From assembly GCA_944350405.1 (NCBI GenBank), contig CALVPC010000001.1:1-26790 (forward strand): a stretch of DNA of 26,790 nucleotides. Direction: 5' to 3'. The stretch comes from an uncultured Bacilli bacterium. GTDB lineage: Bacteria > Bacillota_I > Bacilli_A > RF39 > UBA660. The notes below the pieces were generated by a model, which saw nothing but the letters and a program-made list of their open reading frames with translations, had not been told where the DNA came from and ran no database searches. Shown here piece after piece: positions 3,314 through 26,790 of the stretch. Numbering within the stretch: the first letter of the stretch is position 1; every line of letters starts with the position of its first letter. A program made the position numbers and the translations under genes.

Positions 3314-4552
<1,239 letters not shown>

Positions 4553-4596
4553 TTATCTTAATTATATAATAAAATAAAGCATAATAAAACTTTTTA

Positions 4597-4625
4597 TTGC
4601 ATTTTTGTCCAAAAACGGATATCAT
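4597..4625 (+). promoter_or_regulatory. sigma-70 promoter of the FemAB-family gene
   Basis: TTGCAT (4597-4602), 17 bp, TATCAT (4620-4625). AAGGAGG RBS lies before ATG 4657. Confidence 0.6.
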
Positions 4626-4656
4626 AATATATAGAATAATACTAAAGGAGGATATT

Positions 4657-5928
4657 ATGAAAATAGTAAAACTAACCCCTGAACAATTCGATAATTTTTC
4701 AATTAATCATCCTCTACATACATATTATCAAACATCAGCATACGGAAGTTTAATGAGTAGTGAAGGATTTGAACCGCATTACTATGGATTTACTAATGAT
4801 CAAAATAACCTAGTCGGTGCATGCCTAATGCTTATACAAAAGCTATTTTTAAATTATAAATATGCTTATGCCCCTAGAGGATATTTAATCGATTATGATA
4901 ACAAAGATTTAATTATAGATGTAACTAACAAAATGAAACGATTCCTAGCTAAAAACAATATTATATTTTTAAAAATAGATCCCCCTGTCGTAAATAATAA
5001 AAGAGATAAAGATGGTAATATTTTAAGAAGTCCTTATACAAATGATCTTATACCTTTTTTAACAAAAATAGGATATGAATACTTTGGAGACAATAAAGCA
5101 TTTGGTACTCTAAAACCAAGATGGAATGCCATCTTAAAAGTAACAGGATCCAGTTCTACTTTATTTGAAAACTTAGATCCAAGTGTTAAAAACAAAATCA
5201 GAAAAGCTTCATCTAGAGGTGTTGAAGTACTTCAAGGAAATCACAATGATATTGAAATTTTTTATAAATTTGTTGCAAAAAAACATTACAGAAAATTAAA
5301 CTATTATAAAAAATTTGCTGAATGTTTTGGAGATAATTTTGAATTATATTTTGCTAAATTAAATACTGAAAAATATTTAAATAATATAAAACTAATTTAT
5401 GAACAAGAATTACAAAAAAATGAAGAATTAAATAGAGAAATACAAGATGCAGCCTTAAAAAATAAAATTAGTAATAAGTTAACAAATTCTAAAATAACAT
5501 CAGATAAAGTACTAGCTATCTATAAAAAAGAGCTTGAAACTGCTACCAATTTATTTTCTAACAACCCTCAAGGATTAATTATTGGTACCACTGCAGTCAT
5601 AATTGAACGCTACGGCGTAGAACTAATAATAGAAGGCCAAAATCCAGCTTATAAACTATTTTATCCAACATTCTTAACTAAATGGTATATAATAGAAAAA
5701 TACTCTAAATTAGGTGCTGTATATTTTGATTTAAATGCCATAACAGGTAATTTTAAAAGTAACAAGTTTCAAGGATTAAATGAAATGAAATTAGGATATA
5801 ATGCTGAAGTAACTGAATATATTGGAGAATTTGATTTAGTTATAAACAAACCAATATATAAAATTCATAAAAAATGGAAATTAGGAAAGAAAGCTATAAA
5901 AAAATCTCATAATGAAAAAAATAGATAA
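4657..5928 (+). CDS. FemAB/MurMN-family aminoacyltransferase (peptidoglycan interpeptide bridge synthesis)
   Basis: YAYAPRGYLIDY, IFLKIDP, KIRKASSRGVEV, a central coiled-coil insertion, and FKxG-like NEMKLGY..EYIGEFDL. Start after AAGGAGG. Confidence 0.9.
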   Translation: MKIVKLTPEQFDNFSINHPLHTYYQTSAYGSLMSSEGFEPHYYGFTNDQNNLVGACLMLIQKLFLNYKYAYAPRGYLIDYDNKDLIIDVTNKMKRFLAKNNIIFLKIDPPVVNNKRDKDGNILRSPYTNDLIPFLTKIGYEYFGDNKAFGTLKPRWNAILKVTGSSSTLFENLDPSVKNKIRKASSRGVEVLQGNHNDIEIFYKFVAKKHYRKLNYYKKFAECFGDNFELYFAKLNTEKYLNNIKLIYEQELQKNEELNREIQDAALKNKISNKLTNSKITSDKVLAIYKKELETATNLFSNNPQGLIIGTTAVIIERYGVELIIEGQNPAYKLFYPTFLTKWYIIEKYSKLGAVYFDLNAITGNFKSNKFQGLNEMKLGYNAEVTEYIGEFDLVINKPIYKIHKKWKLGKKAIKKSHNEKNR

Positions 5929-5940
5929 TATTATTTACAT

Positions 5941-5970
5941 AAAAAAGGCTCTAAATATAGAGACTTTTTT
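5941..5970. terminator. Bidirectional terminator between the convergent FemAB and HAD genes
   Basis: A6-G-(g)-CTCT..AGAG-(a)-C-T6: a short stem flanked by A and T runs. Confidence 0.55.
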
Positions 5971-6605
5971 TATTTAAAATTTTTATAAATAATATATGGA
6001 AGTTCATTTATAGAATTAATATAATAATCACATTTACACACATCACCAAACCCATACCTAGCCTGAATAAAAGGAATATTACAAAGTTTAGCCGCTTCCA
6101 TATCTTTTAATGTATCTCCAATATACACACACCAATCAAGCCTATAATCATTAATTATTTTATTTATAGCACAGGCCTTAGAAATATTTATCTCACTAGC
6201 AGCGATATAATCCTTAAAATATTTACCTAAATTAGAAGATATCAAGAAAGCTTCGATATATTTCTTACTAGAAGCATTACTAACTATAAATAAATCATAT
6301 TTTTCATAAAGTTTAATTAAAACATCCCTTACCCCAGAATAAACTATTCCTCCGTGATTTTTTAGATATTCAATGTTAAAAATTTCAGACTCATCAAAAT
6401 ACTTTAATCCTTTATCAAGTTCCACATTAGGAAAATATAATTTAGATATTTCAAATTTATTTAAACCAAAACTTTTAATAACAGTCTCTTTAGATACTTT
6501 ATCTAAATTATACTTTTTAACAATTTTATTAATACTTTTAAAAGTAATATCAAATGTATCCCATAATGTTCCATCTAAATCAAATAATATACCTTTTCTA
6601 TTCAT
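5970..6605 (-). CDS. HAD-superfamily hydrolase (phosphoglycolate-phosphatase-like)
   Basis: Motif I FDLDGTL, motif II VSN, a conserved Lys, and motif IV YIGDTLKD. Confidence 0.92.
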   Translation of the reverse strand: MNRKGILFDLDGTLWDTFDITFKSINKIVKKYNLDKVSKETVIKSFGLNKFEISKLYFPNVELDKGLKYFDESEIFNIEYLKNHGGIVYSGVRDVLIKLYEKYDLFIVSNASSKKYIEAFLISSNLGKYFKDYIAASEINISKACAINKIINDYRLDWCVYIGDTLKDMEAAKLCNIPFIQARYGFGDVCKCDYYINSINELPYIIYKNFK

Positions 6606-6635
6606 TTTAAACCCTTTCTTAAACTTATCAATATA

Positions 6636-6677
6636 AATAAAAAGACTATTAATAAAAATACAATATTAATAATCTTT
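6636..6677 (-). terminator. Possible terminator after gap
   Basis: AAAGA-c-TATTAATA (6641-6654) / TATTAATA-a-TCTTT (6664-6677) with a 9-nt loop and a U-rich tail on the minus strand. The stem is AT-rich, so weak. Confidence 0.4.
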
Positions 6678-6684
6678 ATGAGCT

Positions 6685-7695
6685 TTATTTTTTTATCAAT
6701 TCAGCAAAATATTTAGCACATCTTACCATTTGACTAGAATAACCATATTCATTATCATACCAAGCAACAATTTTAACCAGTTGCCCATAATCAGAATTTA
6801 AAACATTAGTAAGAGATAAATCAACAACACCACCATGTGTACTACCGATAACATCACTAGATACTATTGGATCATATGTAGCATCTAAAACCTCATTTTT
6901 ATTATTTATAAATTCTTTATTTATCAAAGAAACATCAACCTTTTTTTCAAGTTCTAAAACCAAATCAACTGCAGACCCATCACTAACTGGAACTCTCATA
7001 GCCATACCATCCATCTTACCATCAAGTTCTGGAATTACAAGGCCTATTGCATTTGCTGCCCCCGTTGAAGTAGGAATAATATTAATAGCAGCAGCTCTAC
7101 CACGTCTTGAATCAATACCTTTTTTATGACTAACATCAAGAATCATTTGATCATTTGTATAAGCATGAATAGTAGTCATAAAACCTTTTTTTATTCCAAA
7201 CTTATCATTTATAACTTTAAGTACTGGTGCCAAACAATTAGTAGTACAACTACTTGCACTAACAATTTTTTCATTACCAGTAAGTATTTCCTCATTAACC
7301 CCATAAACAATAGTTTTAACATCTCCCTTACAAGGAGCAGAAACAATTACTCTACCAGCACCAGCATCAACATGCTTCATAGCTTCTTCTTTCTTATTAA
7401 ACTTACCGCTACATTCAAAAACCATATCAATTGCTAGCTTATCCCATGGTAGATTAGATGGATCTTTCTCTGCTAAAACTAATATTTTTTTATTACCAAC
7501 TAATAAATAACCATCGCTATAACTAATTTCATTCACTTTATAATTACCTTGACTAGAATCATACTTAAGCAAATGAGCCAGTTCCCTAGCATCAGTTAAA
7601 TCATTAACTGCTACAACCTCAAAAAAACTATCCTCCATAAGAATTCTAAAAACAAGTCTTCCTATTCTCCCAAAACCATTTATTGCAACTTTCAT
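6685..7695 (-). CDS. gap: Type I glyceraldehyde-3-phosphate dehydrogenase
   Basis: INGFGRIGR Rossmann motif, catalytic SCTTNCLAP, HAYTNDQ, WYDNEYGYS. Confidence 0.98.
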   Translation of the reverse strand: MKVAINGFGRIGRLVFRILMEDSFFEVVAVNDLTDARELAHLLKYDSSQGNYKVNEISYSDGYLLVGNKKILVLAEKDPSNLPWDKLAIDMVFECSGKFNKKEEAMKHVDAGAGRVIVSAPCKGDVKTIVYGVNEEILTGNEKIVSASSCTTNCLAPVLKVINDKFGIKKGFMTTIHAYTNDQMILDVSHKKGIDSRRGRAAAINIIPTSTGAANAIGLVIPELDGKMDGMAMRVPVSDGSAVDLVLELEKKVDVSLINKEFINNKNEVLDATYDPIVSSDVIGSTHGGVVDLSLTNVLNSDYGQLVKIVAWYDNEYGYSSQMVRCAKYFAELIKK

Positions 7696-24579: not shown

Positions 24580-25113
24580 CTAAGCCTTCTCTATTTGAGA
24601 AATTTCCAGTTCAACATCTGTTTCTTGTCCAAATAAGTCAAGAAGTACTACAAGTTGTTGTGTATCAAGATTAACTTCTGCAACTTTTCCTTCCATACCA
24701 GCAAATGGTCCAGAAGTAATTTTAACAACTTCACCTTCTTTAAGATCAGTAGAAACCTCAAGTCTACTCATACCCATATTATTAAGTATTTTATCAACTT
24801 CATATGGTTGTAAAGGCGTAGGCTTTGCTCCTTTACCACTAGATCCAATAAATCCAGTAACCCCAGGAGTATTACGCACAACAAACCATGCTTCATCTGT
24901 CATAATCATTTCAACTAAAACATAACCTGGAAATAATTTTCTAACCTTTTCTTTTGTAACACCATCTTTTACTTCTACTTCTGTTTGCTCTGGTACAATA
25001 ACTCTAAAAATATAATCTTCCATATTCATTGAAGCAGCACGCATCAAAAGCTTTTCTTGAACTTTCTTTTCATGCCCAGAATATGTATTAACAACATACC
25101 ATTTCTTATCCAT
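24580..25113 (-). CDS. nusG: Transcription elongation factor NusG
   Basis: WYVVNTYSGHE, LFPGYVLVEM, VRNTPGVTGFIG, and the KOW motif GPFAGMEG. Confidence 0.98.
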   Translation of the reverse strand: MDKKWYVVNTYSGHEKKVQEKLLMRAASMNMEDYIFRVIVPEQTEVEVKDGVTKEKVRKLFPGYVLVEMIMTDEAWFVVRNTPGVTGFIGSSGKGAKPTPLQPYEVDKILNNMGMSRLEVSTDLKEGEVVKITSGPFAGMEGKVAEVNLDTQQLVVLLDLFGQETDVELEISQIEKA

Positions 25114-25277
25114 TATCTTAACCCCTTAATAAGCGCAAACACAACAGTAATTAAATAAAAATATACAGAACACACGATTACAGTAAAAAACGTTGCAATA
25201 GAATATTTAATCATATACTTCTTATCAGGCCATTTTGTCTTTTTTAGTTCACTCTTAACTTCTTTAAAAAATTTCAT
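25113..25277 (-). CDS. secE: Preprotein translocase subunit SecE (54 aa, below the ORF-track cutoff)
   Basis: Manual translation MKFFKEVKSELKKTKWPDKKYMIKYSIATFFTVIVCSVYFYLITVVFALIKGLR*: ELKKxxWP motif plus one TM helix. GAGGTG RBS. TAATG overlap with nusG. Confidence 0.95.
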   Translation of the reverse strand: MKFFKEVKSELKKTKWPDKKYMIKYSIATFFTVIVCSVYFYLITVVFALIKGLR

Positions 25278-25310
25278 AACTCACCTCTAAAGTTTATGCT
25301 TTTTATTTCA

Positions 25311-25360
25311 AAATAAAAACACTTTCGTGCCTACAAGTAGAGAATAGCACACAAAAGTGT
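25311..25360 (-). terminator. Probable murT-gatD terminator overlapping the secE promoter
   Basis: Minus strand ACACTTTT..GTGC / GCAC-GAAAGTGT stem followed by TTTTATTT. Confidence 0.5.
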
Positions 25361-25369
25361 AAAAGTCAA
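25341..25369 (-). promoter_or_regulatory. secE-nusG promoter
   Basis: TTGACT (25369-25364), 17 bp, TATTCT (25346-25341), with an extended -10 TG. Confidence 0.7.
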
Positions 25370-25385
25370 GAAAATACTTTAATTT

Positions 25386-26108
25386 TTAACCATGATCACT
25401 CATAATAACTCTAGCATTATCATCTAAAAGTTCATTAAGCCTATGCTTATAAGCAGCCATAATGTCTTTCTCATAACAAAGTTTGCCAGTATAACCCATC
25501 TTTTTAAGCAATAATTTTGTAAATTTAGGATTCAGTATCAAAAGCGGACCAATTAAGTAAGTAGCATAAAAGTTTTTATAATTAATACCCTCTACAGTAT
25601 TATTATTTCCCATTCCAAGACCTTTAATAATCTTTATAAAAGGTTTAGTATCATCACCATACATTGTAGAAAAAGTACTAACACTACCAACCATTTTTAT
25701 ATTTTTATAATCTCCTAAAAAGAAATAATTTTTCCTTTTTAAAAGACTCCTCTCAAAATAAACATCAAAAAGTCCTAAACCTTCAATTTTTTTATTAGTA
25801 TCAACATCTAAAATATATTTACCTATAATTTCAATAGCATCACTAGTCACTAAAAAAATTTTTCCCTTTTCAATAAAATCCATAATTTGTTTTTTATAAG
25901 GTTTCAAATTATCAATTATAAGCTCTTGATGTACATGACTCATTGCTCCTAAATAAATCATATCTATTTTGCCATTAATAAATTTAGGTTTTTCATTAAT
26001 ATCAGTATAATAAACTTTAATATCATCACTACATCTAGACAAATATTTAATATTGTATGGATCACCATAAAAATTACAAAACTTAGGATACAAAACTTCA
26101 ATTTTCAT
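25386..26108 (-). CDS. GatD/CobQ-like class I glutamine amidotransferase-fold protein with substituted catalytic residues
   Basis: Colinear with GatD motifs: NFYGDPYNI, IYLGAMS..Q, EGLGLFD, GxGNN..EGINYKN..TYLIGPLL..NP. Coupled to the murT-like gene. Confidence 0.88.
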   Translation of the reverse strand: MKIEVLYPKFCNFYGDPYNIKYLSRCSDDIKVYYTDINEKPKFINGKIDMIYLGAMSHVHQELIIDNLKPYKKQIMDFIEKGKIFLVTSDAIEIIGKYILDVDTNKKIEGLGLFDVYFERSLLKRKNYFFLGDYKNIKMVGSVSTFSTMYGDDTKPFIKIIKGLGMGNNNTVEGINYKNFYATYLIGPLLILNPKFTKLLLKKMGYTGKLCYEKDIMAAYKHRLNELLDDNARVIMSDHG

Positions 26109-26790
26109 TATTATCGCCTCCTAATTCTATAATTCTATCATAAAATTGTTTTCTAATTTTCATAGCCTTACTAACAGCTTCCACCTCATAAAGAAAATAT
26201 ATTTTTTTAATACCTTTAATTTTTACATACTTATAAAGCTCATAATCATCGTCAGTGCAAATATATTTATCATCTGGAAATCCACCCAGTTTTAAACGCA
26301 ATTTATAATCCAAATTTCTAGGCCCACCAATAAGTATCTGCTTTATATTATCCTTATTTAAAAACTCAAAATCAGTTTCATAAAACCAAGTAATAGTTTC
26401 CATTTCTCCACCTTCAGCAGTTAAATACATTTCATTCATCAAAAATACTAGAACAATATCATCTTCATCCTTAGCAATTTGTTCAAAAACTGTAGAACAT
26501 GCAGAAACATTTTGACCTTTAGCCATTTGAGCAATAAGTTCAATTCCATTAACAGTAATACTACTTTCACGAGATTTAGGTATCTTTAACTGCTTAAATC
26601 CCAAAGCTATTTCTTCATCAGTAAATCCTACTTCTTTAAAAAAAGTAATAACAGCAATTTGATTATAAATATTAAAAATACTAGAAGAAATAAGTGGATA
26701 ATTATATATATTACTATTATGTTTAACTGCTAAAGTCTTATCTTTAGAATTATGACCAACAACTAAATAATCTGCATCATATGATTTTAA
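26098..26790 (-). CDS. MurT-like Mur ligase with C-terminal DUF1727 domain (5' part outside the window)
   Basis: The frame is open from 26790 (LKSYDADYL..FNIYNQIA..). DUF1727-like KGQN..TWFYETDFEFL..LRLKLGG. The stop overlaps the gatD start. Confidence 0.88.
   Translation of the reverse strand, partial: LKSYDADYLVVGHNSKDKTLAVKHNSNIYNYPLISSSIFNIYNQIAVITFFKEVGFTDEEIALGFKQLKIPKSRESSITVNGIELIAQMAKGQNVSACSTVFEQIAKDEDDIVLVFLMNEMYLTAEGGEMETITWFYETDFEFLNKDNIKQILIGGPRNLDYKLRLKLGGFPDDKYICTDDDYELYKYVKIKGIKKIYFLYEVEAVSKAMKIRKQFYDRIIELGGDNNEN

Follow-up and report, generated by a model that had tools for sequence, protein, structure and literature searches.

The 26,790-nucleotide window analyzed here is an entire contig (26.8 kb) from an assembly of an uncultured Bacilli bacterium (0.93 Mb, 26% GC, 91% complete). 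On its minus strand, at 25386..26108, an open reading frame (ORF) encodes a 240-residue protein with the fold of GatD, the glutaminase subunit of the MurT/GatD complex that amidates lipid II, but without the glutaminase residues. Below we refer to this gene and its product as the window gatD and the window GatD, and to its homologs with the same losses as dead forms. As judged from sequence comparisons, the gene belongs to a paralogous family of old origin, which takes the place of the canonical pair, and is not a GatD ortholog with a recent loss of the catalytic residues. We consider it very probable that the window GatD does not hydrolyze glutamine, that it is kept because its partner MurT needs it, and that the complex of the two still modifies a peptidoglycan precursor in a reaction dependent on adenosine triphosphate (ATP).

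The loss of the catalytic residues was established in phmmer alignments with GatD proteins of solved structure (6fqb_E, 9sq9_C, 5n9m_A, and 6gs2_A; E-values from 2e-16 to 2e-13). The nucleophile elbow T-I-C94-G-G-Y-Q of GatD corresponds to V-T-S89-D-A-I-E in the window GatD, the H189-G-P loop corresponds to I186-G-P, so that the catalytic His is absent at this site, and the segment GFENHGG corresponds to GSVSTFS. Thus, the nucleophile Cys94 of Staphylococcus aureus GatD is replaced by Ser89 (codon AGT, 25842..25844, minus strand) and the catalytic His189 by Ile186 (codon ATT, 25551..25553, minus strand). The oxyanion glycines Gly60 and Gly95 (numbering from PMC5871853) are replaced by Ala55 and Asp90. 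Two residues of the S. aureus active site are retained, namely Tyr17 as Tyr14 and the glutamine-sequestering Arg128 (PMC5871853) as Arg125 (codon AGG, 25734..25736, minus strand). The initial annotation, made from the DNA letters, had already proposed the Cys and His replacements, the altered GFENHGG segment, and the retained Arg, and all of these were confirmed by the alignments. In S. aureus, the GatD mutants C94S, C94G, C94A, and H189A lose glutamine-dependent activity, and C94S, C94A, H189A, and MurT D349N are inactive or severely impaired with glutamine (PMC6113224, PMC5871853). The window GatD, as these aligned residues indicate, cannot work as a Cys-His glutaminase.

The overall fold is retained. 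The AlphaFold2 model of the window GatD, built on 46 relatives, has a mean predicted local distance difference test score (pLDDT) of 95.4, and the nine best matches to this model in a Foldseek search of the PDB are all GatD proteins, with template modeling (TM) scores between 0.75 and 0.83 (0.82 for 6gs2_A). The model includes the class-I amidotransferase fold and the extra C-terminal helix that contacts MurT in GatD. At the level of family profiles, residues 3-187 match the Pfam family GATase_3 (PF07685) with 43.3 bits, above the cut-off of 27, as do the CobB/CobQ proteins, which keep the Cys-His pair and serve a different synthetase. In contrast, the scores for the NCBIfam GatD equivalogs NF045636 and NF052463 (71.6 and 62.4 bits) are far below the respective cut-offs of 400 and 450.

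The altered active site is a property of a large family, which we call type A. In all 52 homologs found through a word index, and in relatives from the same genus and family, the motif T-G-N-A-x-E-x-F-G replaces I-C-G-G-Y-Q-x-L-G, and Ile, Leu, or Val is found where GatD has His. A profile search against 1.84 billion representatives returned 3243 matches, including 616 with E-values of 1e-30 or lower. Among the best 150 cluster representatives, the Cys column contains Gly in 134, Ser in 12, and Cys in one, whereas the His column contains Leu in 84, Ile in 37, Val in 11, and His in one. The column equivalent to Arg128 has Arg in 130 of the 150, and position 90, the site of the oxyanion Gly95, has Asn in 138 (Asp in the window GatD). 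None of the 40 best-conserved columns of the family, and none of its invariant columns, is one of Cys or His. Because the closest relatives of the window GatD outside its species carry Gly and not Ser at the Cys site, Ser89 is, on this comparison, a species-level and secondary variant of the family Gly and no relic of the Cys. The initial annotation had raised the question of whether the two substitutions mark a conserved clade. They do: the clade is large, its state at the Cys site is Gly and rarely Ser, and its state at the His site is Leu, Ile, or Val.

These data also bear on the possibility, in our view very improbable, that the window GatD continues to hydrolyze glutamine by means of Ser89 or some other Cys/His pair. 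Ser does serve as a nucleophile in other hydrolase families, and both glutamine-handling residues, Arg125 and Tyr14, are in place. However, the C94S mutant of S. aureus is inactive, the window protein offers no His at position 186 and no oxyanion glycines, and Ser is not the conserved residue of the family. The remaining Cys and His residues of the protein (Cys11, Cys26, Cys211, His58, His60, His222, and His239) are not conserved in the family either, and we rejected an alternative catalytic pair on these grounds; the spatial part of this argument comes from the alignment only.

The family is widely distributed. A scan of one genome per species, with a pattern that demands Ile or Leu at the His site and thus counts dead forms only, identified at least 584 species genomes with a type A gene; the substitutions occur well beyond this assembly. 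The carriers belong to Oscillospiraceae, Acutalibacteraceae, Lachnospiraceae, and Erysipelotrichaceae, and to small-genome uncultured Bacilli (deposited as ‘Mycoplasma sp.’ and ‘Acholeplasma sp. CAG:878’). Helcococcus is also a carrier, and the cultured carriers include Brotomerdimonas butyrica and Oscillospiraceae bacterium WX1. In the fetched loci, the GatD-like ORF directly follows a MurT-like ORF on the same strand in 105 of 110 cases. Some single proteins of about 700-760 residues (P0086, P0098, P0104, and P0198) have the dead GatD domain at the C-terminus and are presumably MurT-GatD fusions. In databases, the family proteins are named hypothetical, CobQ-like, or DUF1727. Our literature searches found no paper that describes a natural GatD without these catalytic residues, and nothing relevant that links MurT to group B peptidoglycan; a paper on pseudomurein does not mention the loss of catalytic residues. 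Type A genes occur in about half of the congeners of the source organism, where they form two subclades with 43-47% mutual identity at different loci. In congeners other than G010 (described below), the type A pair is of a different subclade and lies beside an alanine-racemase-like (Alr-like) gene.

The window gatD is under purifying selection. The identical protein is encoded on at least 33 public contigs from independent assemblies, and its strain variants differ by 1-5 residues, with positions 89 and 186 unchanged in all of them. The ratio of nonsynonymous to synonymous substitution rates (dN/dS) is 0.04-0.14 within the species. In comparison with a congener, for which the ortholog is 66% identical, dN/dS is 0.27 for gatD, 0.22 for murT, and 0.07 for the gene of polynucleotide phosphorylase (PNPase); the values for the first two genes indicate that the dead subunit is as constrained as its ligase partner. 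The reading frame is full length, and its start overlaps the stop of murT by 11 nucleotides (26098..26108, minus strand, read from the sequence), an arrangement that suggests translational coupling. In agreement with the initial annotation, which did not see a decaying gene here, we ruled out a pseudogene and an assembly or sequencing error by the full-length frame, the identical protein in many assemblies, and the low dN/dS. At positions 58, 89, and 90, all of them highly conserved, the window GatD does deviate from the consensus of the family, as a decaying or misread gene might, but these deviations are conserved within its subclade, and the probability that we assign to this explanation is negligible.

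The 3' part of murT, encoding the C-terminal 230 residues, is at 26098..26790 on the minus strand, where it is cut by the contig end; this part matches Pfam MurT_C with 62.7 bits. The full-length protein, taken from other contigs of the same species, has 462 residues and matches S. aureus MurT (6gs2_B) with a phmmer E-value of 4e-42, whereas its scores of 153-159 bits remain far from the 800 bits required by the NCBIfam MurT equivalog. In an alignment of 33 type A MurT proteins, the residues G55-K59 (P-loop G-T-N-G-K-T), E112, D114/E115, C206, C209, C228, and C231 are invariant, and the ATP-binding Asn pair N272/N275 is nearly so. The corresponding ATP-binding, acidic Mg-site, N267, and Cys4 zinc-ribbon motifs have been published for S. 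aureus (PMC6113224). With its ATP-ligase motifs intact, this MurT looks active. The remodeled region is the loop carrying Asp349 in S. aureus, an Asp situated within the D-N-A-A-D motif. At the position of S. aureus Asp349, the third member of the inter-subunit triad, there is Thr364, preceded by Glu363 (codons of both at 26395..26400, minus strand), and both residues are invariant in type A MurT. The motif itself is replaced by N-E-M-Y-L-T-A-E, with insertions. The D349 loop differs in the alignments among type A, type B (a second type of dead pair, described below), and the subclades. A match on contig C86 was considered as the missing MurT N-terminus of the source assembly and rejected, because it is MurC.

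We infer from structure prediction that the window GatD and the MurT C-domain form a complex. The predicted complex scored 0.90, with 0.00 for the best of three controls; since a similar complex has been solved, this score measures likeness to it and is no proof of binding. The mark set for this score is reached by 58 of 80 solved complexes and by two of 110 mismatched pairs. At least 78% of the contacts are common to the prediction runs, and the partner pLDDT is no lower than 91. The predicted contacts, between MurT residues 360-370 and 389-400 and GatD residues 14-18, 141-142, 186-192, and the C-terminal helix, coincide with the canonical interface, in which the MurT C-domain meets helix alpha7 and the His loop of GatD. 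Residues 186-188, at the site of the former catalytic His, touch the MurT loop 364-367.

A different possibility is that the pair no longer catalyzes a wall modification and instead binds lipid II or a muropeptide, as a sensor or by sequestration, or that it acts on a different polymer. The equivalog scores of both subunits, far under their cut-offs, and the altered D349 loop and D-N-A-A-D motif of MurT would be in line with such a change. On the other hand, the invariant or nearly invariant ATP, Mg, and zinc-ribbon motifs of MurT are hard to explain without catalysis, cell-wall neighborhoods recur around the pair (a MurJ-like flippase gene adjoins it in 22 of 80 other loci), and the pair alternates with the canonical one, as described next. 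We consider this possibility improbable.

The source genome contains a second dead murT/gatD-like pair, which we call type B (contig C56, positions 725-2733 of the fetched locus, minus strand). In its GatD, Gly takes the place of the Cys and Leu that of the His, and its MurT has the P-loop G-S-S-G-K-G-S, the loop G-W-K-E-I-S-R-R-Y (pattern G-W-x-E-I-S-R-R-Y), and a retained acidic residue at the Asp349 position. Type B resembles type A in the replacement of Cys by Gly and of His by Leu, Ile, or Val, in its coupling to murT, and in a similar dN/dS. It differs in belonging to a separate clan, closer to canonical GatD, and in its distribution, since almost every congener searched has type B and only about half have type A. 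A search for type B among named organisms led to metagenome-assembled genomes only. In a quick maximum-likelihood tree of 76 sequences, type A forms one clan and canonical GatD another, each with a Shimodaira-Hasegawa approximate likelihood ratio test (SH-aLRT) support of 100, and type B falls on the same side of the type A branch as canonical GatD. Two dead pairs also lie about 3-5 kb apart on one contig in Brotomerdimonas butyrica and in an Erysipelotrichaceae metagenome-assembled genome; the second pair of the latter is very divergent.

With its two dead pairs, the source genome has no canonical pair. We sampled 300 genomes of the class, each at least 90% complete, and separated canonical from dead forms by score, a split that was checked on 12 sequences. 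The canonical form only was found in 31 genomes (one copy each), dead forms only in 22 genomes (one to three copies), and both together in none; since some of these genomes are related, the counts are not independent. A canonical copy was likewise not found in five further carriers reached via their loci. This alternation fits a single place in the pathway for the two kinds of pairs.

Several published observations on S. aureus explain why a dead GatD could be retained. MurT alone is inactive, whereas MurT with GatD C94G loses glutamine-dependent activity and keeps ammonia (NH3)-dependent amidation of lipid II at pH 8.5 (PMC3266927). By analogy, we propose the following mechanism. Through the canonical interface, the window GatD would be joined to the C-terminal domain of the MurT-type ligase with which it is co-translated, and this ligase would need it for activity. 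Using ATP, MurT would activate a carboxylate on a precursor of peptidoglycan; the alpha-carboxylate of D-isoglutamate in lipid II is the most likely one. The nitrogen would not come from glutamine hydrolysis; free ammonia may instead serve as the nucleophile, with D-isoglutamine as the product. We infer both the acceptor substrate and the nitrogen donor. For this organism, we regard ammonia as nucleophile and D-isoglutamine as product, as in the engineered C94G complex, as the most likely reading, with somewhat less than an even chance. Besides this precedent, the cell-wall context of the locus, the alternation with the canonical pair, and the lack of glutamine chemistry in the source genome (below) speak for it.

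A number of observations weigh against ammonia as the donor. At pH 7.5, NH4+ is not a substrate of the S. aureus enzyme (PMC3266927). Of the 30 best-conserved columns of the type A family, 16 lie in the segments of the former active site, which have the new residues T-G-N-A-x-E and G-F-K-S-Q-F. The source genome has two dead pairs and other genomes up to three, some in tandem, and their MurT loops vary at the site where Mur ligases receive the incoming substrate; ammonia alone would not call for such diversity of pairs and loops. In the congener G010 (positions 3817-7063 of the fetched locus), the orthologous murT-gatD pair directly follows an ornithine-racemase-like (Orr-like) gene (NF040742, 388 bits, cut-off 480) and precedes pnp. 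A class-III aminotransferase gene is directly downstream of the pair in seven of 80 loci. Finally, glutamine synthetase and working amidotransferases are present in those carriers of dead pairs that have larger genomes. The conservation of the former active site also affects the description of the protein as a glutaminase-dead scaffold in the initial annotation. Dead it is, with Cys, His, and oxyanion glycines all lost, whereas scaffold is probably too small a role for a protein in which these segments, with their new conserved residues, are the most conserved part.

These observations suggest an alternative, in which the MurT-type ligase couples the activated carboxylate not to ammonia but to an amine or amino acid (for example D-ornithine, diaminobutyrate, glycine, or a diamine), and the remodeled GatD pocket together with the MurT loop is the nucleophile site. 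In that case, where a genome has paralogous pairs, these would differ in the residue that they add or work one after the other. The conserved former active site contains new polar residues and a kept Arg that can bind a carboxylate. Subclade A', to which the window GatD belongs, has exchanged several of these positions jointly (E58 for H/Y/F, N90 for D, and K-S-Q for V-S-T) and keeps the new residues conserved. The MurT loop that matches the incoming-substrate motif of MurE is remodeled, differently in each type and subclade, and the multiplicity of pairs per genome would be accounted for. The genomic context can be read in the same way: in addition to the Orr-like gene directly upstream in G010 and the aminotransferase genes, another locus (L090) has an Orr-like racemase gene directly downstream of the pair, and an ATP-grasp gene is directly downstream in 18 of 80 loci.

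There are also arguments in the other direction. No tblastn match to Orr-like or Alr-like racemases was found in the source genome, and its own locus has no such gene. Racemases and aminotransferases near cell-wall genes may just supply ordinary precursors, and the strict alternation with the canonical pair fits an identical product equally well. The Lys-type MurE and the FemAB gene described below suggest a wall in which D-isoglutamine is usual. To our knowledge, nucleophile binding by a dead amidotransferase domain is without precedent. We regard attachment of an amine or amino acid as only slightly less likely than the use of ammonia. Somewhat more doubtful is the full proposal that the dead pairs are ATP-dependent ligases which put amino acids or diamines on the D-glutamate alpha-carboxylate of lipid II, with different or successive residues added by paralogous pairs.

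The composition of the cell wall was approached through two other genes. A FemAB-family gene is located in the window at 4597-5928 on the plus strand (246 bits; weak match to the FemX alanyltransferase). The MurE of the source genome (contig C21:7125-8585, minus strand) has E-D-P-G in place of the D-N-P-R of the diaminopimelate type and thus lacks the Arg. These two genes together point to a wall that is probably of the Lys type, or close to it, and whose stem peptide has a tRNA-dependent branch. D-isoglutamine is usual in Lys-type walls with a FemAB-type branch. Another MurE-like ORF, on contig C79 (3414-4124, plus strand), is incomplete because it extends past the contig end.

With regard to nitrogen metabolism, we found no glutamine synthetase (PF00120), GlmS (TIGR01135), or class-I amidotransferase domain (PF00117) in the source genome, at its completeness of 91%, whereas each of them was found in all 14 of 14 control genomes. 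Among the genomes of the same taxonomic family, glutamine synthetase was present in only one of 24. The lineage appears to have abandoned glutamine-amide chemistry entirely. Lack of glutamine was considered as the cause of the whole dead GatD family and rejected, because the larger carriers keep glutamine synthetase and amidotransferases. Three features are particular to the source genome: it has two dead pairs within about 1 Mb, no glutamine-amide metabolism was detected in it, and its type A GatD belongs to a subclade in which the pocket has been re-specified.

The closest known systems are the MurT/GatD complexes of S. aureus, Streptococcus pneumoniae, and Streptococcus pyogenes (Enzyme Commission number EC 6.3.5.13; 6gs2, 6h5e, 5n9m, 6fqb, and 9sq9), with which the dead pair shares the order of two overlapping genes, murT first. 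It further shares the GatD fold with the extra C-terminal helix (TM score 0.82), the predicted interface, and the equivalents of Arg128 and Tyr17, and, on the MurT side, the Mur-ligase middle domain, the Cys4 zinc ribbon, and the DUF1727 C-domain. In contrast to these systems, it has no Cys94, His189, or oxyanion glycines, has Thr at the Asp349 position and a remodeled D-N-A-A-D motif, and belongs to a separate, well-supported clan. We did not file the window MurT/GatD under EC 6.3.5.13, because it lacks the Cys, the His, the oxyanion hole, and the Asp of the MurT triad, and because its equivalog scores are below the cut-offs.

The S. aureus mutants C94G and C94S (PMC3266927, PMC6113224) have the same nucleophile change as the family, and C94G is the nearest functional parallel, dead with glutamine and still amidating with NH3 in a complex where MurT needs the dead GatD. 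However, these are point mutants made in the laboratory, with NH3 use at pH 8.5 only, whereas the natural family has also replaced the His, the oxyanion hole, and the MurT Asp and conserves new residues in their place.

A natural parallel exists in mitochondrial carbamoyl-phosphate synthetase I, in which an inactive amidotransferase-like domain without the Cys nucleophile is kept in a structural or allosteric role while free ammonia is used. That enzyme is eukaryotic, and it differs in being an unrelated synthetase to which the domain is fused.

Staphylococci, pneumococci, and mycobacteria cannot do without MurT/GatD, which is under study both as a drug target and for its part in determining peptidoglycan sensing by the host. 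The dead family could represent either an ammonia-dependent form of lipid II amidation suited to ammonia-rich guts, or a scaffold re-used for attaching other groups to the stem peptide. Either answer would change the predicted cell-wall chemistry of uncultured gut bacteria, including their NOD1/NOD2 ligands and their sensitivity to lysozyme and beta-lactams. If amines or amino acids are attached, the family would give names to the long-unassigned enzymes for D-Glu-linked substituents and for cross-bridges of the group B type, and would point to unrecognised peptidoglycan chemistry in hundreds of gut Firmicutes. The lineage of the source genome may live without glutamine-amide transfer, which bears on its routes to glucosamine-6-phosphate, cytidine triphosphate, and guanosine monophosphate.

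Longer contigs of the same species allowed us to describe the full locus as ftsE-ftsX-pcsB-murT (462 residues)-gatD-secE-nusG-rplK. This placement of the pair, with pcsB on one side and secE-nusG on the other, was not common to the related loci compared. The motif AGGAGG was read from the sequence 8 nucleotides upstream of the gatD ATG (26117-26122, minus strand). In the spacer after gatD (25113-25385, minus strand), inspection by eye and comparison with a longer contig of the same species revealed a promoter-like site of the TTGACT type, followed by secE and then nusG; at 54 codons, secE is shorter than the threshold of the ORF list.

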